Shown here piece after piece: positions 6,868-24,072 of a stretch of 26,039 bases of DNA (position 1 is its first letter; every line of letters begins with the position of its first letter). The notes beneath the pieces are model-generated. The model ran no database searches. It was not told the DNA's origin and saw only the letters and a list, made by a program, of their open reading frames with translations. The stretch covers positions 1 to 26,039 of the IMG/VR virus record IMGVR_UViG_2690315742_000005, one strand, 5' to 3'. The position numbers were made by a program, and so were the translations under genes. Source of the DNA: a virus. Lineage: Duplodnaviria > Heunggongvirae > Uroviricota > Caudoviricetes.

Positions 6868-6886
6868 ACTTCGTTTCTCCTCTTAA

Positions 6887-7276
6887 TCAGGCGGCTGCAC
6901 CCGCCGGTTTCTCATACTTACTGATAGTGATCTCGACCTTCCCTTTCGGGATAACCGGTCCCCACTCAACCAGCATTCTTTTCACCTGACTGTCGTCCTC
7001 CCACACACCCGCGTGGGTCAGGGCGTCAAACAGCGCCTTGTTATAGTTGTCCAGATCGCGGATCCGGTTATCCGGAGGAAACAACACGATCTCCACTGAA
7101 GCAGGTGCCGACGTTGGTTTCGGCAGACGACGTAACTGCTCAACTATTGCTGCACACGCCGCGCTCTGGAATTTTCGCCCCGCCGCGCTTATCAGGCTCT
7201 TACCTGCAAACGCCCCTTTGTTGGGGTGTCGCCAGTACGTGTTCACGCTGGGCGGGAAAGGCAGGATCAGCTTCAT
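6887..7276 (-). CDS. rusA: Holliday junction resolvase RusA
   Basis: 129-aa ORF starting MKLILPFPPSVNTYW with an acidic DLDNYNKALFDAL segment, characteristic of RusA-family resolvases; typical nin-region location. Confidence 0.85.
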   Translation of the reverse strand: MKLILPFPPSVNTYWRHPNKGAFAGKSLISAAGRKFQSAACAAIVEQLRRLPKPTSAPASVEIVLFPPDNRIRDLDNYNKALFDALTHAGVWEDDSQVKRMLVEWGPVIPKGKVEITISKYEKPAGAAA

Positions 7277-7599
7277 ACTTTCAGGCCTCTCTCATGTAAC
7301 CAGTGGGTTGCACGCAGCCTGGCGTTTTCCTCACCGGCAAGCAGTGAGCGGATAATCCCGACCGCCTCGCTGTCGTCGTCCTTCACCGCGGTATGAAGAG
7401 TGATACCCCGGGCCACGCCACGCTTTATCGTGATGACGCCTTTTTTCTCCAGTGCGCGAAGATGTTCCACCGCTGCATTCACTGAACGGTATCCCAGCAT
7501 GGTTGCCACCTCCTGATTGGTTGGCGGGAAGCCACGTTCTTTCTGGTAAGAAATCAGCATATCCAGCACCTGCTGCTGGCATTGAGTTAACGTCGTCAT
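7273..7599 (-). CDS. LexA N-terminal DNA-binding-domain paralog lacking the S24 peptidase domain
   Basis: 108-aa ORF; residues 3-66 (LTQCQQQVLDML...GFPPTNQEVATMLGYRSVNAAVEHLRALEKKGVITIKRGVARGITL) align closely by eye with the E. coli LexA winged-helix domain (LTARQQEVFDLI...[46 protein letters not shown]). No Ala-Gly cleavage site and no Ser/Lys peptidase domain follow. Confidence 0.75.
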   Translation of the reverse strand: MTTLTQCQQQVLDMLISYQKERGFPPTNQEVATMLGYRSVNAAVEHLRALEKKGVITIKRGVARGITLHTAVKDDDSEAVGIIRSLLAGEENARLRATHWLHERGLKV

Positions 7600-8249
7600 G
7601 CCGCCATCTCCCTGACCAGTTTTTCCGCCTGCTGGCGAACCTGCGCCAGAAACGCCTCACCACATGCCTCAAGTTCATCACGCCCGATGTAGCTGATTGC
7701 CGGTCCCTTCCAGGTCTTGTCGAAAACAGCAATAGCACCAGCGAAGAAAGCGCCTGTCGGCACCTGCTTCTCGTCCTTCGGTATAAACCAGGCAGGCAGT
7801 TCAAAACCAATACGCCCGCGAATAAAAGCAATATGATCTGCATCTTCCGGCCACCACACTTCGCTGGTGGCCGCTTTGATCAGGAAAACATAGCGCCCGC
7901 CCTTATCACGCATGGCACTGGCATGTTTCATGATGTAACGCATGCCGGTGATGTATTGCCCCTCATGCTGACTGGCGCGGCTGTATGGGGGATTACCAAA
8001 GGCAGCACCTTTAAGCTCCGCAAGACGTTCTGACCAGTCATGCGCCAGCGCGTTATCTTCCGCCGTGTAATACGCGGCACATTTGGCGTTATCACCGTCA
8101 GTAAACAGATCCAGAACAAACGGGCCAAACAGGGTGTTAATTCCCCAGAAAATGTTGTCCGGCGTGCGCCACTGATCGCCCACTTCCTTCAGTTCATGGG
8201 CTGGTTTGTTCCGCAGTTCCACCAGCGCCTGGCAATATTTATTACTCAT
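7596..8249 (-). CDS. phage N6-adenine DNA methyltransferase (Dam-type)
   Basis: ORF 7596..8282; NPPY motif (FGNPPYS) typical of N6-adenine methyltransferases. Start placed at the internal ATG at 8249 (MSNKYC), which overlaps the upstream gene stop in TAATG; the upstream GTG/ATG at 8282 is an alternative. Confidence 0.8.
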   Translation of the reverse strand: MSNKYCQALVELRNKPAHELKEVGDQWRTPDNIFWGINTLFGPFVLDLFTDGDNAKCAAYYTAEDNALAHDWSERLAELKGAAFGNPPYSRASQHEGQYITGMRYIMKHASAMRDKGGRYVFLIKAATSEVWWPEDADHIAFIRGRIGFELPAWFIPKDEKQVPTGAFFAGAIAVFDKTWKGPAISYIGRDELEACGEAFLAQVRQQAEKLVREMAA

Positions 8250-8743
8250 TAAGCCCCCACGTAATTCCCTGACAGATACCACTCTTCACCCGATGCAGCG
8301 CGCTTGCTGCTTTTCCGTAAGCACCGCTCACGACGCGCCAGAAAATTGTTTCGTTCTGGCTGGGAGTGGCTTTCACGGAATGCCGCCATCCACACGGTTG
8401 CAGCACGACGGTATAAGCCCCTGGACTCCAGTTCTTCAGCCTGGCGGGTCAGGCACAAAATCACCCGTGGATCGTTAGTGCCGACATAGAAATTGCGCAC
8501 AGGTCTGGTTTCTCGAACTGGTTGTGGTTCCGGTTCCTGCGCTCTCTCAGTCAGGCGCGGGAAATGTCTGCGTGTATCTCCTTCACAACGGTGAGCCACA
8601 CGCCCACTCTGACGTAACTTGCTTGCTGACTGCAGAACGCGCTGCCGTGAGTAACCTGCAAAAGCATCCGCAATGTCTCCGGAAGTACACCCCGGATGGG
8701 CTTCAATGAATTTCTGAACTTCATTCAAAAGACTCATAATCAC
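8249..8743 (-). CDS. PerC-like transcriptional regulator domain protein
   Basis: 164-aa ORF; AEELESRGLYRRAATVWMAAF resembles the PerC-family motif (..GLWRRAA..W..), preceded by a possible winged-helix N-terminal region. Confidence 0.45.
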   Translation of the reverse strand: MIMSLLNEVQKFIEAHPGCTSGDIADAFAGYSRQRVLQSASKLRQSGRVAHRCEGDTRRHFPRLTERAQEPEPQPVRETRPVRNFYVGTNDPRVILCLTRQAEELESRGLYRRAATVWMAAFRESHSQPERNNFLARRERCLRKSSKRAASGEEWYLSGNYVGA

Positions 8744-9558
8744 CCCCTGAATCCTGCCGGGATCTGGCTGTAGTCCACGTTGTCGTAACTGGCTTTGAAG
8801 TACGGGTCCTCGCGTCTGGCTGCAGATACCGCAGGAACTTCCCAGGATTCTTCGAAATGACGATCCGGACCAAAGAACGTGACAGCCTGTTTCACAAATT
8901 GTGTGCCGCTGTTACCCATCGCAGATACCCAGCCCGCGTAGCGTTTCACACCTTCCAGCATGGTTTCGGGGTTTACTCCCTCATTCAAACGGGCTTTCCA
9001 GGCTTTGAAGGCTGCAGATTTTGAATTGCCACCAGCACGTTTGGGATATACCAGCCATGCCTGCTCAAACTCCGGAGAGTATTCCGGTCGGTTTGAACGA
9101 ACTCGCACGGACTCATCAACTGATGCACCAACAGCTATTGGTTCATTGACTGGTTCTTTGACAGGTTCAAAAGAGTGACTGGTTCTGGGTGAATCTCCTG
9201 CACTACCCCCTGGTGCAACTCCTGCACTACCTGGTGAATTTGCTGCACCAGATAGTGAATTATTTGCACTACCCCCTAGTGAATCTCCTGCACCATCCAG
9301 ATGAAGGAGATAGATATTACTTGAGTTACCTTTTTCACCTTTCCGGGTGACTTTTTTTACCAGCCCGGACTCACAAAGGGCCGCAATATGATTCATCACA
9401 GAACGTTTGCTAATCTCGCACTGGTCAGCAATATGCTGGTAGCTGGGCCAGCACTCACCCTGATCGCTGGCATTATCAGCCAGCTTGATCAGAACCAGTT
9501 TTCGCAATGGATTACCCACTCGAATTTTCATCGCTTTAACCATCAGCTCCATACTCAT
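8740..9558 (-). CDS. replication initiation protein (O-like) with internal iterons
   Basis: 272-aa ORF; N-terminal winged-helix-like region (LRKLVLIKLADNASDQGECWPSYQHIADQCEISKRSVMNHIAALCESGLVKK); central Gly/Ser-rich linker encoded by direct DNA repeats at 9188..9298, as in lambda O where ori lies inside the gene. Confidence 0.55.
   Translation of the reverse strand: MSMELMVKAMKIRVGNPLRKLVLIKLADNASDQGECWPSYQHIADQCEISKRSVMNHIAALCESGLVKKVTRKGEKGNSSNIYLLHLDGAGDSLGGSANNSLSGAANSPGSAGVAPGGSAGDSPRTSHSFEPVKEPVNEPIAVGASVDESVRVRSNRPEYSPEFEQAWLVYPKRAGGNSKSAAFKAWKARLNEGVNPETMLEGVKRYAGWVSAMGNSGTQFVKQAVTFFGPDRHFEESWEVPAVSAARREDPYFKASYDNVDYSQIPAGFRG
9188..9298. repeat. iteron-like direct repeats (candidate origin of replication) inside the initiator gene
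   Basis: Five tandem 21-24-bp units with consensus about GGTGAATCTCCTGCACTACCCCCT (9188-9211, 9212-9232, 9233-9254, 9255-9277, 9278-9298), read directly from the sequence. Confidence 0.6.
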
Positions 9559-9791
9559 GCTGCACCTCCGAGATGCTTCATGTTTTTTCCGGAGCGAAAG
9601 GCTATAAGCGGCATACTGACGCGGTAATTACGGCCCAGCGGTTCACAAACCACCTTCTGACATTCACGGTCAACCAGGCTAACACGTAGAACATGCCCTG
9701 CAGGCGTGGTGTACCACTGCCCAACTGTAGGAATTGATGTTTTTTTACGCTGAAGCAAACGGCAAATATTGAGGAACAACGGATTAAGCAT
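9555..9791 (-). CDS. hypothetical small protein (early operon)
   Basis: 78-aa ORF translationally coupled (4-bp overlaps) to both flanking genes; no recognisable motif. Confidence 0.4.
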   Translation of the reverse strand: MLNPLFLNICRLLQRKKTSIPTVGQWYTTPAGHVLRVSLVDRECQKVVCEPLGRNYRVSMPLIAFRSGKNMKHLGGAA

Positions 9792-10620
9792 GACGATGCC
9801 CTCCGCTGATATTCAGGAGACGGTGAATATGAAAATTAGCCTTATCCGCCAAACGAATACGTTCAGCCTGCAAGTTAAGAAGCGTTTCTACCAGAACCTG
9901 ATGCGCCTGCGGATCCGAAAGAGTTACCTTGCGCAGAGCACGTAGTGCAGTTGTTACATAACTGAGTTTATGTAAGTCTTCATCATTCAGACGAGTGAGG
10001 GCTGGGACAGTAGCCATGATGGCAGCCTCCTTGATCGGTGAAATACTTCCACCACCGGAAACGCCAATTTCGCTGGTGGTGAACTGAACGGGGTTGGCGT
10101 AACCGGTGATCAAGGAAACCGGCGCATCTTTCGATGCCCCCGCCCAGCCCACCATAACTTTGATGTGAGCAAATGCGGACGATAAAAAAGACGCTGGCGC
10201 GTCATATATCGCCTTGATCAGTTCCAGGACGCCAATCCCGGCACCCGCTTTATAAGGTGCCTGAACAGTGTAACGTCCCGGAATGGCAGAATCAATGTGC
10301 TGGTGGTCCTTCACACTCAACAAAATCACGCCTGAATTTCCACAAAGGACTAAAGCACTCATGCGGGTAGTCTTTGCGAAGATAGATAACGCGCTGTGTT
10401 TCTGGCTCCCAACGAATAACATGGACATAAAGCCCTCTTCCGTCACGAAACCAGCGGTTAAGTTCCTGCACAACTCGCCCCCCACAGTCAGGTAAAGTTC
10501 TCTGTGGTTACTTACAGCCAGGTGATTTGGTAATCTGCATTCATGCCGTAACAACAGGTGTTCAGCGACGCTGACCACCAGCTGTTGCGACAAACGGTTA
10601 TTTGCCGTTAAACTGTTCAT
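9784..10620 (-). CDS. hypothetical protein (early operon, unknown function)
   Basis: 278-aa ORF in operon context between the cII-position gene and the replication gene; Gly-rich stretches (GWAGASKD, GVSGGGS) but no confident family assignment. Confidence 0.5.
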   Translation of the reverse strand: MNSLTANNRLSQQLVVSVAEHLLLRHECRLPNHLAVSNHRELYLTVGGELCRNLTAGFVTEEGFMSMLFVGSQKHSALSIFAKTTRMSALVLCGNSGVILLSVKDHQHIDSAIPGRYTVQAPYKAGAGIGVLELIKAIYDAPASFLSSAFAHIKVMVGWAGASKDAPVSLITGYANPVQFTTSEIGVSGGGSISPIKEAAIMATVPALTRLNDEDLHKLSYVTTALRALRKVTLSDPQAHQVLVETLLNLQAERIRLADKANFHIHRLLNISGGHRHA

Positions 10621-11180
10621 GCGTTAGTTTCTCCACAGACACAAAACGCCACGACGCCCGGAGCTGCACACTCGCGGGCGTCACTCTTTTCTGGAGCGCA
10701 AAAGATTTTGTAGACCAGTGCTGCATGCTCCTGGAGCTTCGAAATTGACAGATACAACTCATCATTAATTGCTGTCTGCTCGTGTGGCTCCACTACCCCA
10801 TCTTCAATTGCCGAACGAATCTGCTTTGAGTAACTCCCGATCTGTTCGATGACTTCCAGCAGGCGCTGGTTTATATCGGCGTTCTCTACTTCCTCAATTT
10901 CAGGAAGCGATACAAACACCCCACCAGCAGACTGTGCGACAGCATCCGCAATGTAGTGAGTGCCAGCCGCGCGCTGTAAAATCATTGCCCATCCCAGCGG
11001 GAAAATCTGATCGCCATCTGCACGAAGGCGGTTGAATAAAGCGTTCTCTGTTACATCCAGCCACTCAGCAGCTTCAGCGTAACCCCCCGGCAACGCCGCG
11101 ATCGTTTTTCTGACAGCTTTCACGTACCACTCAGGCTGTTTTTCTACTTTCCAGTGATGCTTACCCACGGTTAGCCTCAT
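10617..11180 (-). CDS. hypothetical protein in the cII/YdaT position
   Basis: 187-aa ORF immediately downstream of the cro-like gene; functional call is by position only. Confidence 0.4.
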   Translation of the reverse strand: MRLTVGKHHWKVEKQPEWYVKAVRKTIAALPGGYAEAAEWLDVTENALFNRLRADGDQIFPLGWAMILQRAAGTHYIADAVAQSAGGVFVSLPEIEEVENADINQRLLEVIEQIGSYSKQIRSAIEDGVVEPHEQTAINDELYLSISKLQEHAALVYKIFCAPEKSDARECAAPGVVAFCVCGETNA

Positions 11181-11502: not shown

Positions 11503-12177
11503 ATGAAAACAATCCATGACATCCGGCGGTCTAACGCCAGAAAACTGAGAGATGGTGTTGGCGGAAATTCATCCTTTGCCACCATGATTGATCGCGAGCC
11601 AACCCAAACCAGCAGGTTTATGGGGGATGGCGCTACTAAAAATATCGGTGACAGCATGGCACGGCACATCGAAAAATGTTTCGACCTGCCTGTCGGATGG
11701 CTTGATCAAGAACACCAGACAACGAACATCACAAAAAAACCTGATGTTTCAATCACTAACAAACAAATAACGTTAGTCCCTGTCATATCATGGGTACAGG
11801 CCGGAGCATGGAAAGAAGTTGGCTATTCTGAGGTTGATTTGAGCACAGCAGAAACTTATCCCTGCCCTGTACCCTGTGGCGAAATGACTTATATCTTGCG
11901 GGTGATTGGTGATTCAATGATTGATGAGTACCGCCCTGGAGACATGATTTTTGTTGATCCCGAAGTCCCTGCCTGCCACGGTGACGACGTTATTGCATTG
12001 ATGCACGATACAGGCGAAACTACCTTCAAGCGATTGATAGAAGATGGAACACAGCGTTATCTCAAAGCATTAAACCCAAACTGGCCTGAGCCTTACATTA
12101 AGATTAACGGTAATTGCTCTATAATTGGTACAGTGATTTTCTCGGGAAAACCAAGAAGATACACAATAAAGGCCTAA
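11503..12177 (+). CDS. CI-like prophage repressor (HTH plus S24 LexA-like peptidase domain)
   Basis: 224-aa ORF; C-terminal region VISWVQAGAW...VIGDSMIDEYRPGDMIFVD...FKRL carries the Ala-Gly cleavage site and Ser/Lys dyad pattern of S24 peptidases; divergent from the cro-like gene. Confidence 0.85.
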   Translation: MKTIHDIRRSNARKLRDGVGGNSSFATMIDREPTQTSRFMGDGATKNIGDSMARHIEKCFDLPVGWLDQEHQTTNITKKPDVSITNKQITLVPVISWVQAGAWKEVGYSEVDLSTAETYPCPVPCGEMTYILRVIGDSMIDEYRPGDMIFVDPEVPACHGDDVIALMHDTGETTFKRLIEDGTQRYLKALNPNWPEPYIKINGNCSIIGTVIFSGKPRRYTIKA

Positions 12178-12195
12178 TCAATATTTATGAACCTG

Positions 12196-12222
12196 CTTCG
12201 GCAGGTTTTTTTATACTTGACA
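12196..12222 (+). terminator. rho-independent terminator after the repressor gene
   Basis: Hairpin AACCTGC-TTCG-GCAGGTT followed by TTTTTTTAT, 19 bp after the cI-like stop. Confidence 0.65.
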
Positions 12223-12921
12223 ATGTACCCATGAGATACATAATGTATCCAAAAGAAACATGAGGCAGGCAAGATTCAAACAAAATTTGGTTGTAACACG
12301 GCGTATGGCACATGCGTCGTTAGCGGTCTGGGGACGTTAAAGGGGACAATCCACTCCTTGCTCGGGCAAACAAACCAGGTAGCCGGAATGTGCAAGTCAA
12401 TGATGATGCTGATAAGACGCCTAACCAGCGTGGCGATCCGGTTTGACGCCTGGGAAGAGACCAGGGTGCAACGATGAGGGCATTTATGGAGCCGCGACAA
12501 AGTGTGGTGCCGTAACTGGCTAAGTGCTCTCAGCGTTGTGGTCATCCGCGAAATGGCGCGGCGGTAAGTATGGCTGGGTTACTCTTTCCCCGTTGAGGAC
12601 ACCGGATTGTCAGGTTGACCATACGCCTGAGTGACAACCCCACCACAACAGCCACTGCTTTGGCGGTACCAGTTTGTACACTTGCTTCCGGCTGGTACCG
12701 CTCTTTTTACAAAACAGAGAAGAGCATCACCGGACGACGGGCTCATAACCCAATCCATCCGGGCGGCGGTCACCGCAGGTGTTCTTCTCTGTTTTGTGGA
12801 GAAACTAACCGCCCCTGCGGGGGCATCTATTGAAACGTAATTGCTTAATAATCGCCGGATGGCGAGGGCTTCCTTTTCCCAAAATTCAGCGCAGTGCAGC
12901 GCATATAAAGTGGAGAACGAA

Positions 12922-14082: not shown

Positions 14083-14289
14083 ATGCTGAACCTCGATTGT
14101 GTTCCTATCTCAACTTATTGCAAAGAAACTGGCGAAACTCCTGAAGCAATAAACAAACGTGTACAGCGCGGTGTTTGGCGTGAAGGTGTTCAGGTTTTAA
14201 AGGTTGAAGGCGTTAAGGAGAGGTGGATTGATCTTAGTGAGGTTGCAAAATGGGCCAGACAAAACTGCTCAAACTACCGCGCGGCGTAA
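14083..14289 (+). CDS. excisionase (Xis-like)
   Basis: ORF 14071..14289; likely start ATG 14083 (GGAGAA RBS upstream). Small basic protein with winged-helix-like KRVQRGVWREGV segment, immediately upstream of and overlapping the integrase gene. Confidence 0.6.
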   Translation: MLNLDCVPISTYCKETGETPEAINKRVQRGVWREGVQVLKVEGVKERWIDLSEVAKWARQNCSNYRAA

Positions 14290-15416
14290 CAATCAGGAAA
14301 CACCGCCAGGGAGAAACGATCAATATAACTTTCACCTACAAAGGAGTTAGATGTCGTGAGCCGCTTTCCAATCTAGAAGTAACACCAAAGAACATTAAAT
14401 ACGCCGAGCGTACACTCGGCGAAATCCATAATAAGATCGAAAGGGGAACATTCATTTATGCAGAATATTTTCCCCGTTCTGCTCGTTTGAAAATTTTTGG
14501 TAATGCTGCTGCAGGCAAAACGGTAAAGATGTACCTGGACGAATATCTTGAAATCTGCGAAACAAGAAAACTTTCACCCTCTACGATTGGTGGCTATAAA
14601 AAATGCCGTAGTGCGTTAGCCTCACTTCACATTTGCCCTGCAAGTGAATTAACACCAGCAACCCTGAAAGCGTGGATTCAAAGCCAGAAAACAACCTTAA
14701 AAACCATTCGCAACCAGTTATCTTTCCTGCGGTCAGCACTTGATGAAGCCGTGACCGATGGGGTACTTCAAATTAACCCCGTATCGTTAGTAACAGCTTC
14801 GCGCTACCAAAGTGATAAGTCAGAAGCAGAAAGCAGCTATGTGGTTGATCCGCTATCACCAGCAGAAGTTGATGCATTATTAGCAGCAGCCGGAAACAAA
14901 CAATGGGAAAATCTGTTCCGGTTCGCCATACATACAGGCCTGCGTAGTTCTGAATTATGTGCCCTTCGATGGCGTGATATCGACTTTGTTGGAAAAACTG
15001 CCCATGTCCAGAGCGCAAGTGTTGTCGGTGTTATCAAAGGGACAAAGACAAAAGCAGGTACTCGTAAAGTTGAACTGACAGAAGAGGCAATGTTGGCGCT
15101 GATAAATCAGAAGCCATTTACATTCATGAAGGATGCTACTGTCTTTGAAGACCCAAAGACCAATAAGCCTTGGGCAAGTGCTGATGCAATAAGGAAAAAA
15201 GCATGGGTGCCAACATTACGAAAAGCAGGTATTCGTTACAGAAACCCATATCAAACCAGGCATACATTCGCCACCCGCCATATCAGCCGGGGAGCGAACC
15301 TGTTTTGGCTTGCAGCTCAAATGGGGCATAAAGGGCCTGAGATGCTTTTCAGGCACTATGGTCGATATCTCAAAGAATACGACGGAAAAAGCTCCATCAA
15401 ATACATTATACAATGA
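14250..15416 (+). CDS. tyrosine integrase (lambda Int family)
   Basis: 388-aa ORF; N-terminal arm-binding-like domain; C-terminal catalytic region with conserved R (TGLRSSELCALRW), HTFATRHISRGANL and GHKGPEMLFRHYGRYL (H-x-x-R ... Y). Confidence 0.9.
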   Translation: MGQTKLLKLPRGVTIRKHRQGETINITFTYKGVRCREPLSNLEVTPKNIKYAERTLGEIHNKIERGTFIYAEYFPRSARLKIFGNAAAGKTVKMYLDEYLEICETRKLSPSTIGGYKKCRSALASLHICPASELTPATLKAWIQSQKTTLKTIRNQLSFLRSALDEAVTDGVLQINPVSLVTASRYQSDKSEAESSYVVDPLSPAEVDALLAAAGNKQWENLFRFAIHTGLRSSELCALRWRDIDFVGKTAHVQSASVVGVIKGTKTKAGTRKVELTEEAMLALINQKPFTFMKDATVFEDPKTNKPWASADAIRKKAWVPTLRKAGIRYRNPYQTRHTFATRHISRGANLFWLAAQMGHKGPEMLFRHYGRYLKEYDGKSSIKYIIQ

Positions 15417-15428
15417 TTATGGCGGCAT

Positions 15429-16058
15429 TTATTGCCGCCCACATAATTCATTATGCCATTTATCCAAGTAACAATCCAATTGTTTTAATGTTTTCAATAC
15501 ATATACAGGCTTACGTGGCGGATGATTTTTTTGAAAAGAATCATATAAATGCATTATGAAATCGACACAAGCACTAGATACATTCTGAGCGCGAAAAACC
15601 CTATATGACTTATTAAAACAATATGATTTCTCACATTCCATAGTAGCTTCATCTATAATATTAGAAAAATACGAAATTGTTATTTTTATCCCCCTCTCAT
15701 CGAGAAGATTAATGTATTTATTTATTTGTATGGCTTTTCCATGAATTGCCGTTAAATATATTTTCGCCGACTGAGTATGCAATCCATTAGAGTTCTTAAA
15801 ATTTTTTTTCTTAAATGGATTAGAATCTGGTGGTGTTGACTTATTAACCCAGTAATCCAGAGACAAATCTGATATTTCGTTTAAAATTTTAGCAATCGCA
15901 TCTATAATCGATTTAGATTCAGAGCGAGTAGCAATCTTCAGTGAATTATTGTAAGTAACAAACCATCCAATAAACACTAAGATAATACTCACAACACTAA
16001 ACATCCATGCGTAAGTGGACACCCCTGCAAGGGTGTCCTTAATATCAACGGTGTTCAA
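15429..16058 (-). CDS. hypothetical membrane protein (third gene of AT-rich cargo operon); start uncertain
   Basis: ORF 15429..16142; predicted TM helix (MFSVVSIILVFIGWFVTY) then Lys/Asn-rich soluble domain; very low GC. Candidate starts: TTG at 16058 (GGAG 5 nt upstream, 1 nt after the upstream stop), ATG at 16004, or ATG at 16142 (would overlap the upstream gene by 83 nt). The 3' end overlaps a hairpin (15423..15441) shared with the convergent int gene. Confidence 0.5.
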   Translation of the reverse strand: MNTVDIKDTLAGVSTYAWMFSVVSIILVFIGWFVTYNNSLKIATRSESKSIIDAIAKILNEISDLSLDYWVNKSTPPDSNPFKKKNFKNSNGLHTQSAKIYLTAIHGKAIQINKYINLLDERGIKITISYFSNIIDEATMECEKSYCFNKSYRVFRAQNVSSACVDFIMHLYDSFQKNHPPRKPVYVLKTLKQLDCYLDKWHNELCGRQ

Positions 16059-16059
16059 A

Positions 16060-16401
16060 TCAACTCCTTTGGAAAGGCTTCCTTTCTGGATTAGCCATTT
16101 CAATATATCTAAAAATTTGATCTTTATAGAACGGCAAATCACTTTTTATAATTAGTTTTGCCTTAATGTCAGCCTTAGGTACACCTTCCTTCCTAACAAG
16201 CCCTCCAAAGGCCTCCTCTAGAAACGAAGAACCAATCCCATGATTTATACCCGTAAAATCTACGACAACCTCACGCTCACCAGATTTTAATGCAGGAACC
16301 AGAAAGTCCTTACGAAAACGCTCAGCACTGTTCGGGCTGTCAGACTTGAACCTTCCAAATGGCATCTTTGAGAAATCCCTTGCTATGACGATGTTAACCA
16401 T
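16060..16401 (-). CDS. STAS-like (anti-sigma-factor-antagonist-like) small protein
   Basis: 113-aa ORF; EVVVDFTGINHGIGSSFLEEAFGGL matches the STAS/SpoIIAA-like pattern (hydrophobic strand, D-F/L-S/T-G-V, then SSGL/SSFL helix); start overlaps the upstream gene stop by 8 nt. Confidence 0.5.
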   Translation of the reverse strand: MVNIVIARDFSKMPFGRFKSDSPNSAERFRKDFLVPALKSGEREVVVDFTGINHGIGSSFLEEAFGGLVRKEGVPKADIKAKLIIKSDLPFYKDQIFRYIEMANPERKPFQRS

Positions 16402-17317
16402 CTTCTCCTCTCCTCGGAACTAATGACCATTCAATCAATGTTCCCGGCATGTACTCAGGTATCCACTCGCATTTGGGAACCTCATTTCTTGAATTATAGC
16501 TGTACTTAACATTCCCTGTGAACACCAAAAGTGATTCTGAATTCGCACAGCCAGACCCTATAGGTCTCTTTATATCCTCAGAACCATTACCACGTCCAGC
16601 GTTAACATATCTGGACTGTCCTCCTGTCAGGGCTGTTGACACAGATGTCACGTCGTCATACCCAGTAAACAACGGAGAGGCTGAAGTAAATGATTTATGT
16701 ATGCCAAGCCCAAGATCATAAATAATAAAGACAACCTTGTCTGTGTCAGGGTTGTACCAACAACTCTGCCACCATCGTTTCCCTTGCATATGCTCTATAG
16801 CACCAGCAAAGTCTGGATGTTCATATGCATGATATGAAACATTCAGCATTGCCTCACTAAGGGCTGAGGAGACCAAAAGATATTGCTCAAATGTGAGAAT
16901 TGCTTTTGAATCAATAAATTCCATCGTTTTAGCCCAATGTTCATACGGTTCCACAGCAGACTGAAAGTACCTGCGTTCCTTAGTAAGAACATCTAATTTA
17001 TCAACTGTATTTGCCATTAGAGCAATCGATAACCCCGTCCCAACAATATATCGATGCCCATACGGATTATTTTCTTTTTTCGGCCAAATGAATCGAAGAC
17101 TACTTGTGCCGAATGCCATAAAATAAGCCCTACTGATGATAGCAAACAACCTTACGCTAGCTGCAGCACCTGCATATTCTACTGTCGAAAAGTCTATAAC
17201 CACTTGTCCAGATGCTCTCGCAAGGGTGTTATCAACTGAGTTCAAAAACTTAGCTGTAACACGGCGATCAGAATCATTATAAAGGCACAATCTTTTTGGG
17301 GAAATCAACAGTTCCAT
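16394..17317 (-). CDS. GHKL/HATPase_c-type ATPase or Ser-kinase-like protein with possible N-terminal STAS-like region
   Basis: 307-aa ORF with GAGGTG RBS 6 nt upstream. Candidate Bergerat-fold motifs: N-box-like LSEAMLNVSYHAYEH, G1-like FIIYDLGLGIHK (D-x-G-x-G), G2-like NAGRGNGSE. N-terminal QVVIDFSTVEYAGAAASVRLF resembles a STAS-like strand-helix. Low GC. Confidence 0.5.
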   Translation of the reverse strand: MELLISPKRLCLYNDSDRRVTAKFLNSVDNTLARASGQVVIDFSTVEYAGAAASVRLFAIISRAYFMAFGTSSLRFIWPKKENNPYGHRYIVGTGLSIALMANTVDKLDVLTKERRYFQSAVEPYEHWAKTMEFIDSKAILTFEQYLLVSSALSEAMLNVSYHAYEHPDFAGAIEHMQGKRWWQSCWYNPDTDKVVFIIYDLGLGIHKSFTSASPLFTGYDDVTSVSTALTGGQSRYVNAGRGNGSEDIKRPIGSGCANSESLLVFTGNVKYSYNSRNEVPKCEWIPEYMPGTLIEWSLVPRRGEDG

Positions 17318-17458
17318 GGCGACACCTCAGCCAAATCTGTCTAGTCAAAAATGAGCAAAATAAATTACTATAAAATAATGACGAAGTGCACGTTTTTGAT
17401 ACGCAAAGATTGCAGGAAGAAATTAAACTTTATTTTTCATACACATAAATTCAATCAT

Positions 17459-17488
17459 ACGCGGGTTCAACTCCCGCCAGCTCCACCA
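17459..17488 (+). other. attachment-site core: 30-bp copy of the 3' end of tmRNA (ssrA), ending CCA
   Basis: ACGCGGGTTCAACTCCCGCCAGCTCCACCA matches the 3' terminus of E. coli tmRNA as I recall it (...GGACGCGGGUUCAACUCCCGCCAGCUCCACCA); upstream sequence is AT-rich and not tmRNA-like, so this is a partial copy as generated by site-specific integration. Confidence 0.6.
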
Positions 17489-17498
17489 AATAAATCAA

Positions 17499-17531
17499 GG
17501 GGTTACGTGAAAGCGTAGCCCCTTTTTCTTT
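17499..17531 (+). terminator. rho-independent terminator candidate immediately after the tmRNA 3'-end copy
   Basis: Hairpin GGGGTTACG-TGAAA-GCGTAGCCCC (one G-U pair) followed by TTTTTCTTT. Confidence 0.45.
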
Positions 17532-17611
17532 GGTAGTGGCGGCAAAATGGCGACAGACTTTTGCGTCCATCTTGCCTGTCGCCATCTTGAAATCATGCAA
17601 AGAGGTTTCAC

Positions 17612-18094
17612 ATGGAAGAACTTCACTTTGTTTACATCAATGCAAATGGTCGTATCGCTGTTCACTCTATACAGAGCATCAGTTATAGCGAAAATCATAT
17701 ACAGGGCATTTGTAAGAACACCGATCGAATAAAAACCTTCCGAAAAGACCGCATTCTTAAACAGTACGATTCACCAGAACAAGCCATTCAGGAATGCGCG
17801 TCATTCCTCCCCGAAAGCTACTCACATCTCACTAAGCAGTCTGGTCCGAAAAAAAATACATTCGATGTGTGTTTCACCGGATTTAAGAAAGCAGATAAAG
17901 AAAGATTGGTTGATAAGGCGAATGAACAAGGATTAACGGTAAGAACCTCTATAACCCAAAGCCTTCAGATGCTCTGTTGCGGTTACAATGCAGGCCCATC
18001 AAAAGTATCGGCAGCCAGGATGAAAGGCACAATCATCATAGATGAGCCTGGCTTTATACATTTTCTTGAAACGGGTGAGATTCCAGATGAATAA
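17612..18094 (+). CDS. BRCT-domain protein (cargo gene between att core and ogr)
   Basis: 160-aa ORF with AAGAGG RBS; C-terminal 80 aa (FDVCFTGFKKADKERLVDKANEQGLTVRTSITQSLQMLCCGYNAGPSKVSAARMKGTIIIDEPGFIHFL) follows the BRCT pattern seen in NAD-ligase C-termini (F-TG, G-V..S.t....l..G.naGsK..kA...g..ii.E..F); N-terminal 75 aa unassigned; AT-rich. Confidence 0.5.
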   Translation: MEELHFVYINANGRIAVHSIQSISYSENHIQGICKNTDRIKTFRKDRILKQYDSPEQAIQECASFLPESYSHLTKQSGPKKNTFDVCFTGFKKADKERLVDKANEQGLTVRTSITQSLQMLCCGYNAGPSKVSAARMKGTIIIDEPGFIHFLETGEIPDE

Positions 18095-18120
18095 AAACCT
18101 GCCGTAGCAGGTTCTCTTTC

Positions 18121-18339
18121 TCAAAAATTCATATGCCCCTGACCACCTGGCAATGGATGTGGAGGAGCAGTAGCAATCAGTGCGGGTGTCACAATAAACC
18201 GGACCACTGTTTCATGAGTAACAAAAGTGCTCCCGCAGTTAATATTTTGGCACTGGCAGTAACGCTCTTTGGTGCTTTCAGTTACTTGAAAACTGCTCCT
18301 TGTGTGTGCCGCATGACCACACTTTGGACAATTCATCAT
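18121..18339 (-). CDS. ogr: Ogr/Delta-type zinc-finger late transcription activator
   Basis: ORF 18121..18384; from the internal Met (MMNCPKCGHAAHTRSS...TKERYCQCQNINCGSTF...PHPLPGGQ) it is 72 aa and matches P2 Ogr (CPLCQHAAH...TKERYHQCQNVNCSATF...PHPLPSGQ) including the four zinc-ligand Cys. Confidence 0.85.
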   Translation of the reverse strand: MMNCPKCGHAAHTRSSFQVTESTKERYCQCQNINCGSTFVTHETVVRFIVTPALIATAPPHPLPGGQGHMNF

Positions 18340-18407
18340 ATCCAGATCCCTACCTTTGCTATCAGAATCATTGTAATGATACACAAAATATCAATATTGA
18401 GAACACT

Positions 18408-19508
18408 TTATTCCATTTCAAGATCATCAATCTTCACTTCGAGTTCAATACTGGTTGTAAAACCGTTATCCGGGCTGACGGTATGTGTCAGAGTCGTAAT
18501 GGTCCATTCCGCATCATCTATCGGCTGTTTAAAACCACTGACCTTCACAGGCATTTCCGTGTAGAGATCTGCCCGCCCTTCTGCCAGTTGTAGCGAAAAT
18601 GACGCAACGCCGCGTTGCAGGCGTTCCCACTGCATTTTCGCCGCTCGTTCGGCGTTGCTCCGGTTGGCATAAGTGCGATTAAGTACCAGCACGTTTTCAT
18701 CCGTACCCACCAGGTAATCGCCCTGCTTCGCTTCTGGCTCTTTCTTCTGCTTCTTAGTTCTGCGCTTACGCTTCACCGTGGTGCTTTCTTTCTTCGCAGG
18801 TTCGCGGGTATGCAACCAGCTGGCAATTACGCCCGTGTAGGCTCCGCGATCTGCCAGGGTAAATCGGTGACTGTCGCCGTCCTTGCGTGTGATAGTGATC
18901 ACTGGCAGAGGTTTACCAGTGGCGCTTTTGCCCTGCCCCTGCCGGATGAATAACAGATTGCCATTTTTCACCGACGCGATGGCACCGTACTGTCGCGCCA
19001 GCCGCATCAGAAAACTGCCGTCACTCTCATTAGTCTGGTCTATATGCTCCACGGGCTTATCCGACAGGTCTTTACCCAGTGCCATCTTCAGCTTGTGCCG
19101 CGCGGCTATTTCCTTCACCACTTCCCCGACGGTGGTCTTATGCCACGATTTTTCACGGCGGGTATTCAGCGTTTCCCGAAAATCAGCACTTCGCGCCCGG
19201 ATAGTCAGGCGGTCCGGTGCGCCAGTGTGTTCAATCTCGTCCACTGTGAATGCCCCTTTCGGGAAAAGCGGCTGCCCCTTCCAGCCCAGCGCCAGCGTAA
19301 TAACCGCACCACGGCGCGGCAGCACGATTTTTCCGTCAGCGTCATCCAGCTCCAGATCAAGCTGGTCCGCTTCAAAGCCCCGGTTATCCGTCAGCGTCAA
19401 ACTCATCAGGCGGTTATCCAGCACAGTGGTGATATCCCTGCCCTCAATACTGATGCTGAATGCGGGAGTTTTGTTGCCTTTGTTAAGCAGTTCAGAGCTG
19501 AAATTCAC
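18408..19508 (-). CDS. D: P2-like tail protein D
   Basis: 366-aa ORF directly downstream of U and upstream of ogr, the conserved P2 order FI-FII-E-T-U-D-ogr; size and character fit gpD. Confidence 0.8.
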   Translation of the reverse strand: MNFSSELLNKGNKTPAFSISIEGRDITTVLDNRLMSLTLTDNRGFEADQLDLELDDADGKIVLPRRGAVITLALGWKGQPLFPKGAFTVDEIEHTGAPDRLTIRARSADFRETLNTRREKSWHKTTVGEVVKEIAARHKLKMALGKDLSDKPVEHIDQTNESDGSFLMRLARQYGAIASVKNGNLLFIRQGQGKSATGKPLPVITITRKDGDSHRFTLADRGAYTGVIASWLHTREPAKKESTTVKRKRRTKKQKKEPEAKQGDYLVGTDENVLVLNRTYANRSNAERAAKMQWERLQRGVASFSLQLAEGRADLYTEMPVKVSGFKQPIDDAEWTITTLTHTVSPDNGFTTSIELEVKIDDLEME

Positions 19509-19990
19509 GACAGCAGCCCTCCCACCGTTTTACTGATATCGCTTAAGGCAGACGTTGCCGTGTCCTGCAAATTATTCAGTTGCGCACTGAGATCACCGAA
19601 CATATCGGACAGGGATTCATCCACTCGTTTGAGCGACAGGGTGAACTCAATCCGGCGCGGCATACCGTCGCGGAAAAACTCCGTTTTAGTCTGATTCAGT
19701 CCCTCAATCACATACATGCCGTAAATCGTGCCGCTGCCTTCAATCAGGGGCCATGCTTTCCCCTGTTCTGCCATCTGCTCCAGTGCCAGCAACGACAGCC
19801 TGCCGCCTGTTATTTCCGGCATAAGAACACCGGAAAGCGTCAGCATGTCGTTTTCCGGTCCCAGAAACTGCGTGGACGGACGTCGGTTTACCCGACTGTT
19901 TGCCGCATGTCGCCAGCTGCGTTGATACTGCAGTTCCTGATACGGAACGGTGCGCAGCATAAACACGTACAATCCCAGCACCATCATCAT
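19505..19990 (-). CDS. U: P2-like tail protein U
   Basis: 161-aa ORF between T and D with 4-bp overlaps; size matches P2 gpU. Confidence 0.8.
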   Translation of the reverse strand: MMMVLGLYVFMLRTVPYQELQYQRSWRHAANSRVNRRPSTQFLGPENDMLTLSGVLMPEITGGRLSLLALEQMAEQGKAWPLIEGSGTIYGMYVIEGLNQTKTEFFRDGMPRRIEFTLSLKRVDESLSDMFGDLSAQLNNLQDTATSALSDISKTVGGLLS

Positions 19991-22900
19991 GCGTCGTATC
20001 CCCCCTGATCGCTGTAGTTACTCCTGGCTTTTGCCTTCAGCCTGCGTTCACGTTCATCAAGCTGGCGTGCCACCTCCCGCGCAATATCCTGCGCACTTTG
20101 TCCTGGCTGCGTCTGAATGATGATCTGCGTCGGTGCCTCAATCCGTTGAACGAGCGGCACAGTGGCTGCGCGACTCACAATTGCTTCTCCACCTTTCGCG
20201 GGAAGTGCCAAAGGGTGCAACGGTGGAAGCTCTGCTGGCGCGGCAGCAACGCCCATCATTCCGGCAACAACGGCAGCCAGTGCAGCTGTATTTCTCCGGC
20301 TGGTCACATTTGCCGGGCCGTTAACAATTTCCGGCCCGTTTTCACCGACGATGCCAAACTGCCCGCGCGGGATATACCCACCGCTGTCATACATCCCCGC
20401 AAAGCCATATCCCCATGATGGAAAACCACCCGATGGCATCATCACTTTACCGTCTGCATTCACCGTCGCAGGTTGCTGACGCGTCACGCTTTCCGGCAGT
20501 TTTGCCTTTGCGGCCTCTTTACTGACAATGCCGAGCTTCTCCAGCAACCAGGAAACGCCGGATTTCAGGGAGTCCAGCGGATGCATGACCATATTCAGCC
20601 CTTCCGCCAGTGCCTCCCCGAATCGCCGCCCCATTGCCGCTGCGCTCTGCAGTTCGGCAGAGGTCGACTTAACGGGCGTCAGCAGATCAGTAAACCAGCC
20701 CCACAGCGCCTGCACTTTGTCGCCAATCCACTGGAACACGGGCTTAAGCGGTTCGAACGCTGCACTGATGGGACCTGCCGCCGCTTTGAATCCTTCCACC
20801 ACGCCACCGAGAAATGCGGTGATGGGTTGCCAGTATTTCCAGACAACCAGCGCCACGCCCGCCAGTGCAGTAACCACAAGACCTATCGGACTGAGCAGAG
20901 CACCTAACAGACCAGATATGGCATACAGGGCAACGCGCAGCATCGCCAGCGGGCCGGATGCGAGCACACGCAGCACCGCGCCTGCGGCAGCCAGCCCACC
21001 GCGTAGTGCTGCCAGTGGATTCATAAACATCACAGCAACAGCACGTAAACCGGATAATCCAGACCGCAAAAGTGCAACCGGCGCACCTGCTACAGTTTTC
21101 AGGACATTCCCCATCAGTGATACCGTGCGACGCAAAGACGACAACGGAGCAGTAAGTAAACCCGCTGCGTTGCCCGATGAAGCAAGCCCGCGTCGCAGCA
21201 GTGCCAGTGGTGCGCCAGCCAGCCAGGACAACGCGCTGCTGGTTCGAGTTACTGCTGCCGTAACGGAAGGTAACGTTTTGATACCCAGCACAGAGAATCC
21301 CAGACGGATCACTGCCAGCGGCCCCAGCACTGCAGCCAGCGCCACCGCTAAGGTGCCGAGGCCTACGGTAACCGCAGCCACAACAGCCACTACTTTCATC
21401 AGTGTGCCTGTCAGTTCCGGGTTAGCTTCCACCCAGCGGCGCAACGCCCCCGTGACGCTTTTCACCGTGTACAGAATATCCATCAGCGGCTGGCGCAGCG
21501 TTTCGCCCAGGCTGCTGAAGGTGTTCTGCGCTCCGGTTTTGACCAGCAACCACTGAGCAGAAAGTGAGTCTTTGTTGATGTCGGATTCTTTCTGCATCGA
21601 ACCGAGCGCATCATTGCCCGCTGTCAGTTTTAGCTGGCGCTGTAGTTCCGGCAGGTTGTTTGCCAGTTTCGCCGCGTCATCGCCAAACTCTTTACCAAAC
21701 AACATGGTCATGGCAGACAGACGCTTGTCCTGCGGCAGTGCGTTCACCTTCTCCAGTACACGCTGGATGGTTCCCATCGCATCCTTCGTCATCTGCTTTT
21801 CAATCACTTCAGGATTGAGTTTCAGCAGATTCATCCCTTCAAAGAAACTCTTGCTTTGCATGGTGGCAATGGACAATTCACGCACCATCGCGTTTGCTGC
21901 ACTGGCTGCAACCTCCGGCGCAGCGCCCAGTGTCAGAAAGGTGGAACCCAGTGCCGCCGCTTTACGATAATCCAGACGGTCAGCCACACCGCCCAGACGT
22001 TGCATCACATCAATGATGTCCGCCCCTTTCGACATGGCGTTATCATCCAGATAGTTCAGCGCATCGCCGAGCTGTTCAATATTGCGGGTAGGTATTTTGT
22101 AGAGCTGGGCGATTTTCCCCAGACTTTCTGACAGTTCATCCGCTGGCAGCTCAAAGGCTGTTGCCGCCTTTGCTGCCGTACTGGCGAAGGCCAGCAGGTC
22201 ACGTTTCTGGTCTTCCCAGCTGTCGTCAGGGTTTGCCACGTTCATGCGCGCACCACCTTCAACCAGTGCAGCGAAGTCCACCGCACCGTTTTCCATCGGC
22301 AACTGTTCGCTGGCAGCCTTGATGGCATCCTGCATTTCGTAAAAACGCGCAGTGCGGTTGCCATTATCGTCACGCAGACCATTGACCTGCTTTGCCACAC
22401 CTTTCATGGCATCTTCCATGCTGGCATAGCTTTTTACCGCCGCCATCACTGGCGCGCCCATTGCCAGCCCTGCAGCCGTGGTGGTGGCTCCGGCTCCTGC
22501 GATACGATCGCGCACTTCAAGCCGTCTTGAGTATTGTTCTCTGGCAGCGTTCATCCGTGCCTGTTGTTCACCCAGACGTTTAAGTGCTTTTTGCTGGCCC
22601 TCCAGTGCCTGCCTTGTTTCTTCAGCATTTTTCTTAAGTTCTCGCTGGGCACTACTGAGTTGCCTGGTATCAATCCCTGATTCTTTAAGTGCCTGACGTT
22701 GTCTCTGGACCGCCCCCAACAAGCCGTTATAGGTCTGCTGAAGTTCCTGTACTCGTGTTTTGGCCTGACTGAATAACTTTGCCTGCGCGGCGGTTGGCCT
22801 GTTAGTGGCAGCAAATTGTGTGGCGAGTTTTGCCGCCTCTTCGCGGGCTGCGTTCAGGTTGTTGGCTGTTATGGCTAGTTGCGAGCGCGTCTTGCGAAAC

Positions 22901-23064
22901 TCATCAATTCTGCCAGCCTGCTTATTCAGTTCTTTGAGGCTGTTTCTGGTATTCTGAATTGCGCCAGCCAGCTCTTTCGAACTGGCCTGTGCAGCACGGA
23001 ATGGGCGGGTGAGTTTGTCAACCGCATTAAGAATGACCTGCAGACGCAGGTTGTTATCACTCAT
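19987..23064 (-). CDS. T: tail tape measure protein (gpT-like)
   Basis: 1025-aa ORF; N-terminal coiled-coil (Ala/Gln/Arg-rich) region, central hydrophobic Ala/Leu/Gly-rich repeats, C-terminal Gly-rich part; follows E/E' as in P2. Confidence 0.9.
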   Translation of the reverse strand: MSDNNLRLQVILNAVDKLTRPFRAAQASSKELAGAIQNTRNSLKELNKQAGRIDEFRKTRSQLAITANNLNAAREEAAKLATQFAATNRPTAAQAKLFSQAKTRVQELQQTYNGLLGAVQRQRQALKESGIDTRQLSSAQRELKKNAEETRQALEGQQKALKRLGEQQARMNAAREQYSRRLEVRDRIAGAGATTTAAGLAMGAPVMAAVKSYASMEDAMKGVAKQVNGLRDDNGNRTARFYEMQDAIKAASEQLPMENGAVDFAALVEGGARMNVANPDDSWEDQKRDLLAFASTAAKAATAFELPADELSESLGKIAQLYKIPTRNIEQLGDALNYLDDNAMSKGADIIDVMQRLGGVADRLDYRKAAALGSTFLTLGAAPEVAASAANAMVRELSIATMQSKSFFEGMNLLKLNPEVIEKQMTKDAMGTIQRVLEKVNALPQDKRLSAMTMLFGKEFGDDAAKLANNLPELQRQLKLTAGNDALGSMQKESDINKDSLSAQWLLVKTGAQNTFSSLGETLRQPLMDILYTVKSVTGALRRWVEANPELTGTLMKVVAVVAAVTVGLGTLAVALAAVLGPLAVIRLGFSVLGIKTLPSVTAAVTRTSSALSWLAGAPLALLRRGLASSGNAAGLLTAPLSSLRRTVSLMGNVLKTVAGAPVALLRSGLSGLRAVAVMFMNPLAALRGGLAAAGAVLRVLASGPLAMLRVALYAISGLLGALLSPIGLVVTALAGVALVVWKYWQPITAFLGGVVEGFKAAAGPISAAFEPLKPVFQWIGDKVQALWGWFTDLLTPVKSTSAELQSAAAMGRRFGEALAEGLNMVMHPLDSLKSGVSWLLEKLGIVSKEAAKAKLPESVTRQQPATVNADGKVMMPSGGFPSWGYGFAGMYDSGGYIPRGQFGIVGENGPEIVNGPANVTSRRNTAALAAVVAGMMGVAAAPAELPPLHPLALPAKGGEAIVSRAATVPLVQRIEAPTQIIIQTQPGQSAQDIAREVARQLDERERRLKAKARSNYSDQGGYDA

Positions 23065-23493
23065 CGTTGGCCCCGCTTCTCTGAATCGCTTTATACCGCC
23101 ATTCCAGCACTTCGGTCAGCGGCATAACGTCAGTAACGGATGGCGGCCAGTGAAAAATGGTGGCGATATCTGCCACCAGATCGTCAACCGTCAGGCTGTC
23201 GGTAAACCGGCAAGCACCGACTTCTTCAACAAAAAAGTGACAACCTCAACCGACATGGCAGTGAGATCTGCCGGGTCCATCTCTGCAATTTCCTGTGCAG
23301 TCAGTGCCGGGCTGGAGATGCGGGGGATCACGGTCATCATCGCGTTCACATCCATATCCATAATGGCCTGCAGGCGTGTACCGCGTAGCGCACCAGACTG
23401 CGGTTTACGCAGCACAATTTCGGTAATTTCTGTTTTACCGCGCTTGATAGGGGTATCCAGTTGAATGGTCTTTTCAGTCTGCTTATCGCTCAT
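23057..23493 (-). CDS. E+E' fusion product via programmed -1 translational frameshift (slip site at 23230..23237)
   Basis: On the minus strand gene E reads ...GTC ACT TTT TTG TTG AAG...; the -1 frame after TTTTTTG stays open (...VEEVGACRFTDSLTVDDLVADIATIFHWPPSVTDVMPLTEVLEWRYKAIQRSGANDE) and ends at a TGA (23059..23057) overlapping the T start codon, the P2 E/E' arrangement. Hand translation. Confidence 0.6.
23191..23493 (-). CDS. E: tail assembly chaperone E
   Basis: 100-aa acidic ORF between FII and T; slippery CTTTTTTG near its 3' end, as in P2 gene E. Confidence 0.8.
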   Translation of the reverse strand: MSDKQTEKTIQLDTPIKRGKTEITEIVLRKPQSGALRGTRLQAIMDMDVNAMMTVIPRISSPALTAQEIAEMDPADLTAMSVEVVTFLLKKSVLAGLPTA

Positions 23494-23547
23494 TTTGTTG
23501 TCCTGTGAATTGGGTTCTGGCGCGGAATCCCGCGCCGTTCAGATACA

Positions 23548-24063: not shown

Positions 24064-24072
24064 GTTGTCCCC

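Follow-up and report, generated by a model that had tools for sequence, protein, structure and literature searches.

A candidate replication origin of iterons and an invariant element inside the initiator gene of an SfV-like temperate phage

The replication initiator gene of an SfV-like temperate phage carries within its coding sequence a tandem array of five repeats that are likely to be the initiator's own iterons and that, together with a family-invariant element directly beside them, would form the phage origin of theta replication. The genome analysed here (the window, a stretch of 26,039 nt) was compared with 71 relatives, and this comparison of sequences supports the original prediction of a likely origin that lies inside the initiator gene in the manner of ori-lambda. 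The reading is favored by the position of the array between the domains of the initiator, the spacing of the repeats by two helical turns, their dyad symmetry, the retention of the repeat irrespective of reading frame, its co-variation with the recognition helix of the protein and the minimum of duplex stability immediately downstream. In the literature that we searched, there was neither a description of this origin nor a binding or origin-activity experiment for any member of the initiator family, and a full-text search for strings of the element and of the peptide retrieved no paper.

The initiator gene and its genomic setting

Annotation of the ORFs with Pfam and PHROG identified the window as an SfV-like temperate phage genome of 26 kb. 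The repressor gene cI (11503-12177) is on the plus strand, and the early-right genes are found on the minus strand in the order cro, CII-like, Ash-like, a 78-aa ORF (9555-9791; phrog_1153, unknown function) and the 272-aa replication protein (8740-9558), continuing downstream with a PerC-like ORF (8249-8743), Dam, RusA, Q, the lysis genes and terminase. The initiator ORF overlaps its neighbors by four bases at both ends (9555-9558 with the upstream 78-aa ORF, 8740-8743 with the downstream PerC-like ORF), which suggests translational coupling along the operon. No phage helicase or P-like loader gene adjoins the initiator in the window, the next genes being those for the PerC-like protein and Dam. 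The integrase gene (14250-15416, plus strand) is followed by ORFs at 15429-17317 with PHROG matches of unknown function, which, judging from their sizes and the SfV gene order alone, might be the O-antigen-modification (gtr) genes, and then by the myovirus tail genes (tail protein, 18408-19508; tape measure, 19987-23064; sheath, 24073-25245). Since the integrase leads on to myovirus tail genes (14250-25245), the window looks like a circularly joined phage genome and not a host-flanked prophage.

Two other repeat-bearing sites were seen in the window. On the 3' side of cI (12190-12262), a hairpin with a T-run forms a terminator, aacctgcttcggcaggttttttt, with TTGACA directly after it, and a 20-bp imperfect repeat pair, AATGTACCCATGAGATACAT and AATGTATCCAAAAGAAACAT (TRF 12222-12261), also follows; the TTGACA and the repeat pair could be a promoter or an operator. 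Within the tail protein gene, at 19329-19399, the direct repeat TT(T/A)TCCGTCAGCGTCA occurs twice, 55 bp apart, and 12-mers resembling GTCAGCGTCAAA occur three times, probably as a coding repeat.

The initiator consists of an N-terminal winged helix, a disordered linker and a helical C-terminal domain, as judged from Pfam matches and an AlphaFold2 model, the latter built on an alignment that is shallow (24 sequences, at 66% identity or more). Residues 17-67 match Pfam HTH_36 (E=1.8e-11; 44-47 bits against a cut-off of 25), the N-terminal domain in isolation also reaches DnaD_N (27.8 bits against a cut-off of 27), and the protein matches phrog_270, 'replication initiation protein', at 6.9e-88. 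The winged-helix domain, the candidate origin-binding part, comprises residues 1-88 (9295..9558, minus strand) and is modeled at a pLDDT of 82-94, with helices at 3-11, 17-29, 40-47 and 51-64 followed by strands at 67-73 and 79-85; the recognition helix falls at about residues 50-64 and the wing at about 67-85. In Foldseek this domain retrieved generic winged-helix folds only, including the DnaD N-terminal domain (2v79), with weak E-values of 0.01-0.09. Residues 91-157 are predicted to be disordered (pLDDT 31-46, compared to 82-94 in the winged-helix domain). Residues ~141-272 (8743..9139, minus strand), comprising the remainder of the linker plus the C-terminal domain, match phrog_1701, 'DnaD-like helicase loader' (7e-33, residues 145-249), and phrog_9327, 'primosomal protein', and the model has helices at 162-226 with a pLDDT of ~70-79. 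There is no Pfam match to this domain, and on the PHROG names it is presumed to be a recruitment module for the host replication machinery. Searches with the initiator gave no relative of solved structure in the PDB and no meaningful match in NCBIfam.

The array had been predicted to lie within an O-like initiator gene. It does lie inside the 272-aa initiator ORF on the minus strand, between the winged-helix and C-terminal domains, but the kinship with lambda O did not hold up: the protein is of the HTH_36/DnaD_N kind, its N-terminal domain gives no match to Phage_rep_O (PF04492, lambda O) even at E<=10, and 'O-like' occurs only among PHROG names. Nor is there a Pfam match to Rep_3, the family of plasmid RepA, RepE and pi, and one winged-helix domain is predicted, not two. 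The 901-bp initiator locus is found at 98-99% identity in SfV (orf39), mEp460, cdtI, the Stx2c phages and Stx2a_WGPS2, and the homologs in these SfV, mEp460, cdtI, Stx2c and Stx2a phages are annotated as replication proteins.

The probable iteron array in the window and in its relatives

Tandem Repeats Finder places the array at 9189-9293, with a period of 24, 4.6 copies, a score of 77 and the consensus GTGAATCTCCTGCACTACCCCCTA, bearing out the five tandem repeats of 21-24 bp that had been noticed in the sequence. In plus-strand coordinates the units span 9189-9212 (24 nt), 9213-9233 (21), 9234-9254 (21), 9255-9278 (24) and 9279-9298, so spaced by 24, 21, 21 and 24 bp, or about two helical turns. 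All five cores fit the form GTG-N9-CAC. Read on the gene strand, iteron 1 (9279..9293), GTGCAGGAGATTCAC, is an exact match to the 15-mer, as is iteron 5, the last (9189..9203), also GTGCAGGAGATTCAC; iteron 3 (9234..9248), GTGCAGCAAATTCAC, and iteron 4 (9213..9227), GTGCAGGAGTTGCAC, each differ from it at two positions, and iteron 2 (9255..9269), GTGCAAATAATTCAC, has the most diverged center, with four mismatches to the consensus center. When 117-nt segments were stepped over the 26 kb, the array alone held four non-overlapping copies of a 12-mer at up to two mismatches, a count that neither the 300 base shuffles nor the 300 codon shuffles ever reached. The 15-mer GTGAATCTCCTGCAC, allowed up to three mismatches, has seven matches where 0.72 are expected, and seven were reached in none of 100 shuffles. 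Elsewhere in the 26-kb window, iteron-like sites occur as single weak matches and do not form another cluster. One isolated site, GTGTATCTCCTTCAC at 8572..8586, lies in the PerC-like gene ~600 bp downstream of the array; it has two mismatches to the iteron 15-mer and fits GTG-N9-CAC, and ~0.05 such sites are expected by chance. The PerC-like gene is absent from phage cdtI, so that this site is dispensable, and its significance is doubtful.

The predicted Gly/Ser-rich linker is what the units encode in the window, where they are in frame and are translated as D-GAGDSL-GGSANNSL-SGAANSP-GSAGVAP-GGSAGDSP (residues 88-124), a segment that AlphaFold2 predicts to be disordered. Unit number changes readily among close relatives: 75 of 80 close viral contigs keep five units and three have six or seven, phage cdtI has eight, and proteins at 87% identity or more carry anywhere from one to nine, the number changing by whole units. 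Polymorphisms among these close relatives fall mostly in the spacers between the units.

Since the scan of viral contigs returned near-identical loci only, informative for copy number, a species-level genome collection was used for diversity. Scanning one genome per species with the protein as guide gave 80 loci (Enterobacterales, Pseudomonas, Aeromonas, Shewanella, Marinomonas, Aliivibrio and others); a further five loci came from phages of Vibrio, Stenotrophomonas, Salmonella and E. coli, and the set in which iterons were compared comprises 71 relatives, all gammaproteobacterial phages and prophages. These proteins begin with a highly conserved N-terminus, MSMxLMxKAMxIKVGNPLRKLVLIKLADNANDxGECWPSYQHIAD, followed by a variable recognition helix, a conserved wing, KGNSSNxY, and a lineage-specific repeat region. 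At the linker position that matches the array, every usable locus has 2-7 units, and 61 of the 71 have 2-7 copies of GTG-N9-CAC itself. The consensus of 275 units is a 19-bp palindromic frame, TRGTGMA-N5-TKCACYA, the dyad symmetry of which fits binding by a dimer. For this frame (GTG-N9-CAC), 8.6 kb of linker contain 275 copies and 49 kb from other parts of the gene contain 6, i.e. 32 per kb compared to 0.12 per kb, an enrichment of ~270-fold. The centers are specific to lineages, Shewanella relatives for instance having centers of the GTGAATCTGCTGCAC type.

Across the family the units are spaced by 21 bp (66 cases), 22 (32), 23 (29) or 24 (52), and 40 of the 71 loci have at least one spacing that is not a multiple of three, which implies that it is the DNA repeat that is kept and not the peptide. 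Single units that fall out of frame are translated as GVVQEIHQ in place of GGSAGDSP, and in four lineages (L154, L160, L161 and L164) the core is inverted relative to the gene. These DNA-level data from the relatives fit the prediction for a binding site and not that for a peptide repeat. Formal analysis thus upheld the conservation of the repeats in both spacing and sequence, with spacings of 21-24 bp and one palindromic frame shared by the 71 relatives.

Iteron similarity between loci follows the identity of the recognition helix (Mantel r=0.61, Spearman, p<=0.0005). The partial correlation given the DNA distance of the N-terminal domain is 0.60, and once the helix is given the N-terminal DNA contributes nothing to iteron similarity (-0.05). 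The co-variation could partly reflect physical linkage, which may inflate it, because the DNA encoding the helix is only 60-150 bp from the array.

The invariant element beside the array

Directly downstream of iteron 5 in the direction of the gene is a candidate family-invariant origin element, CCAGAACCAGTCACTCTTTTGAACCTGTCAAAGAACCAGTCAATGAACC on the gene strand (9140..9188, minus strand). It belongs to a second repeat system (9135-9188) made of 10/11-mers of the form GAACC(A/T)GTCA, with direct copies of GAACCAGTCA at 9176-9185, 9159-9168 and 9147-9156 and a degenerate copy at 9135-9144, the copies being spaced by 17 bp and then 12 bp. Relatives have 2-4 copies of GAACCAGTCA. Iteron 5 joins the element through its CAC in a constant register, CAC-CC-AGAACC, and the junction CACCCAGAA or a close variant of it is present in nearly all of the 71 loci. 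In a blastn search for distant matches with 9100-9400 as the query, phages of Vibrio, Stenotrophomonas, Klebsiella and Salmonella aligned at 92-97% identity over 9152-9188 only. Among the plasmid collection, the element sequence is found in just 15 records and, where annotated, in helix-turn-helix (initiator) genes; a diverged version is present in a betaproteobacterial relative.

The conservation of the element does not follow the reading frame. Over 42 dereplicated loci, its third codon positions are conserved at 0.92, equal to the first and second positions, as against 0.55 for the third positions of 27 equally conserved codons of the N-terminal domain (majority frequency 0.55-0.57, i.e. 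normal synonymous divergence). The substitutions that do occur in the element are mostly non-synonymous (ACC to ATC, CAC to AAC, TTT to CTT, TCT or TTA, and CCA to TCA), and synonyms of its codons AGA, AGT, TCT, GAA and GTC are essentially never used, even in Pseudomonas and Stenotrophomonas. Moreover, the same 10-mer is translated differently from copy to copy: within the window one copy is read R-T-S-H and another, identical, E-P-V; intact genes of Shewanella and Parashewanella read the first copy as P-E-P-V-T; Plesiomonas reads Q-N-Q-S, as also seen in Arsenophonus; and one Arsenophonus gene has three copies in three frames.

The element is also the local minimum of GC content and of nearest-neighbor duplex stability in the gene. 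The family means at the element are a GC content of 0.39 and a dG of -51, compared to -57 to -62 elsewhere, and in the Pseudomonas loci its GC content is 0.44 against about 0.6. In the window it has 43-45% GC, and the stretch at 9300-9359, on the other side of the array, is more AT-rich (35% GC). The search for an adjacent AT-rich unwinding element therefore had a mixed outcome: a local stability minimum is indeed found downstream of the array, but it is only moderately AT-rich (39-45% GC) and consists of conserved 10/11-mers with no A+T tract.

Several other features were looked for around the array. An Rfam scan of 8600-9800 found no known RNA family, the sole match being a sub-threshold microRNA. 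A reading of the element and array as a structured RNA or a primosome-assembly site was dropped because neither strand folds into a convincing hairpin (z +0.35 to -1.8). A sigma-70 scan of 8600-9900 found no promoter, and an internal or antisense promoter at the TTGAC motifs was likewise discarded as a reading; the first 11-mer of the element is too weak a match to be claimed as a half-iteron (AGTCAC against TKCAC). No DnaA boxes were found in 6868-10629, taking in ~1 kb either way of the array, and their total in the window is below that in shuffled sequences.

Based on these comparisons, the element at 9140-9188 probably serves the origin as its site of unwinding or loading. We would go further, tentatively and with somewhat less than even confidence, and suggest that the GAACCAGTCA array is a previously undescribed core origin element, family-wide in gammaproteobacterial temperate phages and with a diverged betaproteobacterial form, that is selected purely as DNA and serves both as a sequence-specific site for unwinding or helicase entry and as the joint at which modules are swapped. 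Selection purely as DNA would explain that the element is read in all three frames. The single-stranded form would, for example, be bound by a conserved face of the initiator, sequence-specific binding of this kind being something that we purely infer.

The swapping of modules raises the possibility that the element is conserved solely as a joint for homologous recombination between the N- and C-terminal modules and has no part in initiation, which we consider unlikely. Among loci L088-L167 the two modules reassort freely, with their junction at the element: one helix type is combined with at least eight unrelated C-terminal types, two C-terminal types are each combined with 7-8 helix types, and distant phages resemble one another in DNA only over the element and the neighboring units. 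However, recombination by itself does not preserve the sequence of a joint, and across Enterobacterales, Pseudomonas, Vibrio, Shewanella and Stenotrophomonas the synonymous sites of the flanking N-terminal region are saturated (0.55) while those positions of the element remain at 0.92. The 10/11-mer repeats, the fixed register with the iterons and the stability minimum likewise point to a role in cis. It is plausible that the element acts as a recombination joint as well as a part of the origin, as the two roles are compatible.

Probable origin function, natural variants and comparison with known systems

For the array itself, it can be argued that it binds the initiator for the purpose of autoregulation, copy control or incompatibility, through titration or handcuffing, and that unwinding and helicase loading take place elsewhere. 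Iterons of plasmids are known to have such secondary roles, relatives with only 1-2 units exist, and the DNA flanking the array is not strongly AT-rich. This seems improbable to us, since the 26-kb window offers no second iteron-like cluster beyond the single weak matches, the array is joined in a fixed register to an invariant element that is also the stability minimum, and nothing that would point to another origin close by was found, neither DnaA boxes within ~1 kb nor a promoter or hairpin in the scanned stretch. That the repeats are simply a slippage-prone, low-complexity Gly/Ser/Ala coding repeat, making a flexible linker and having no function as DNA, would suit a Gly/Ser-rich peptide that is predicted to be disordered and varies by whole in-frame units in close relatives, but the data on frame and orientation all but rule it out, the DNA core being kept in out-of-frame units (spacings of 22 and 23) in 40 of 71 relatives and inverted in some members of the family. 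A purely coding repeat is made less credible still by the ~270-fold enrichment of GTG-N9-CAC in the linker, a unit sequence that follows the recognition helix and polymorphisms that lie mainly in the spacers.

The most likely interpretation is that of iterons and element acting together as an origin. Starting from the anatomy of the locus, the DNA-level conservation, the co-variation with the helix, the disorder of the peptide and the independent assortment of the modules, we infer a mechanism in which dimers of the N-terminal winged helix would bind each 19-bp palindromic unit, the conserved arms of the unit contacting conserved residues and the lineage-specific center contacting the variable recognition helix. 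Five dimers phased every 21-24 bp could then assemble into a nucleoprotein complex like the O-some, and the resulting strain would open the least stable neighbor, at 9140-9188, which is the GAACCAGTCA array. There the initiator may keep hold of one strand, as plasmid Rep proteins do with the 13-mers of their unwinding elements, and the C-terminal domain would bring in the host helicase, a step suggested by the lack of an adjacent helicase or loader gene in the window. Elsewhere in the family, the downstream partners range from none, as in the window, to genes for a DnaB-like helicase, a primase-helicase or lambda P-like proteins.

A number of natural variants alter the region. One allele (P0040, three contigs) is without the last iteron and the whole invariant element, others have two units (P0028, 64 contigs) or one (P0042), and further alleles in this protein set (P0040, P0028, P0042, P0018 and P0017) differ by plus or minus one 12-bp EPVx unit. 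Two prophage loci, L106 and L142, have a frameshift at the element and are truncated at 133 and 118 aa. These origin-region variants possibly come from decayed prophages and could be useful as natural mutants. In the plasmid collection (~30 records, mostly 40-kb phage-like elements), we found no small natural replicon with the initiator gene alone, so that none delimits the origin. A separate case is Arsenophonus nasoniae, in which ~ten 28-104-kb 'plasmids' (H122-H131) each encode a member of the initiator family and look like multiple extrachromosomal phage-like elements that share one type of replication module.

The exact protein cluster of the initiator has 2,852 member sequences, and the present analysis provides a concrete and testable candidate origin for a module that is found in thousands of prophages of E. 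coli, Shigella and Salmonella. The comparison across the family yields a grammar for the iterons, a 19-bp palindrome with lineage-specific centers, and with it a set of natural specificity variants, and the frame-independent conservation of the element neatly illustrates how a cis-acting site can override the constraint of coding. Should it turn out to be a sequence-specific unwinding site, the model of single-strand binding by plasmid Rep proteins would be extended to phage origins. The same replication module is present in the 'Eru6' Stx-converting phages, the replication regions of which have so far merely been classified. Stx2a_WGPS2 (AP012537), the type phage of Eru6 (PMC8951638), is 98.3% identical over the query, and the initiator gene corresponds to its 'Eru6' replication region; the two papers concerned classify the genes only and do not mention iterons or an origin of replication in that sense (PMC8044961, PMC8951638).

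Two groups of known origins invite comparison. The lambda iteron is a 19-bp unit with dyad symmetry, and comparisons of lambdoid origins in 1979-81 reportedly found the iterons to be type-specific and the adjoining segment to be shared between phages. Lambda ori has its iterons, followed by an AT-rich, easily melted part, in the middle of the initiator gene O, and the Stx phages 933W and P27 have 6-iteron origins, the number of units varying between related phages and adding residues to the protein (PMC7466680). The candidate origin described here has the same polarity as lambda ori: transcription of the initiator gene runs first through the iterons, at mid-gene, and then through the presumed easily melted part. 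It has 19-bp dyad units, and the array encodes the linker between an origin-binding N-terminal domain and a C-terminal recruitment domain. As in lambda, 933W and P27, the number of units varies among related phages. Unlike in lambda, the initiator is of the HTH_36/DnaD_N type and not Phage_rep_O, the iteron sequence is unrelated, 2-4 GAACCAGTCA repeats at ~40-45% GC stand in place of the 40-bp A+T tract, and no P-like loader gene comes next in the window.

Plasmid iteron origins lie between genes and are served by Rep proteins with a pair of winged-helix domains (Rep_3). RK2 oriV with TrfA and F oriS with RepE resemble the present case in having a winged-helix initiator, direct repeats and adjacent short repeated motifs, and differ from it in that the phage array is intragenic, the initiator has no match to Rep_3 and there are no DnaA boxes near the array. 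The unwinding elements of such plasmids are made of 13-mer repeats, of which the exact sequence is required and which Rep binds as single-stranded DNA (PMC4081077, PMC10602881); TrfA and RepE, which hold the 13-mers of their unwinding elements, provide the winged-helix precedent (PMC4081077). These 13-mers are the closest analogy at hand for the invariant 10/11-mer array. Considering these likenesses and differences at the level of sequence, it seems that an origin of the lambda kind is here associated with another initiator family, HTH_36/DnaD_N in place of Phage_rep_O, and the part that may be new is the invariant, frame-independent array of 10/11-mers.
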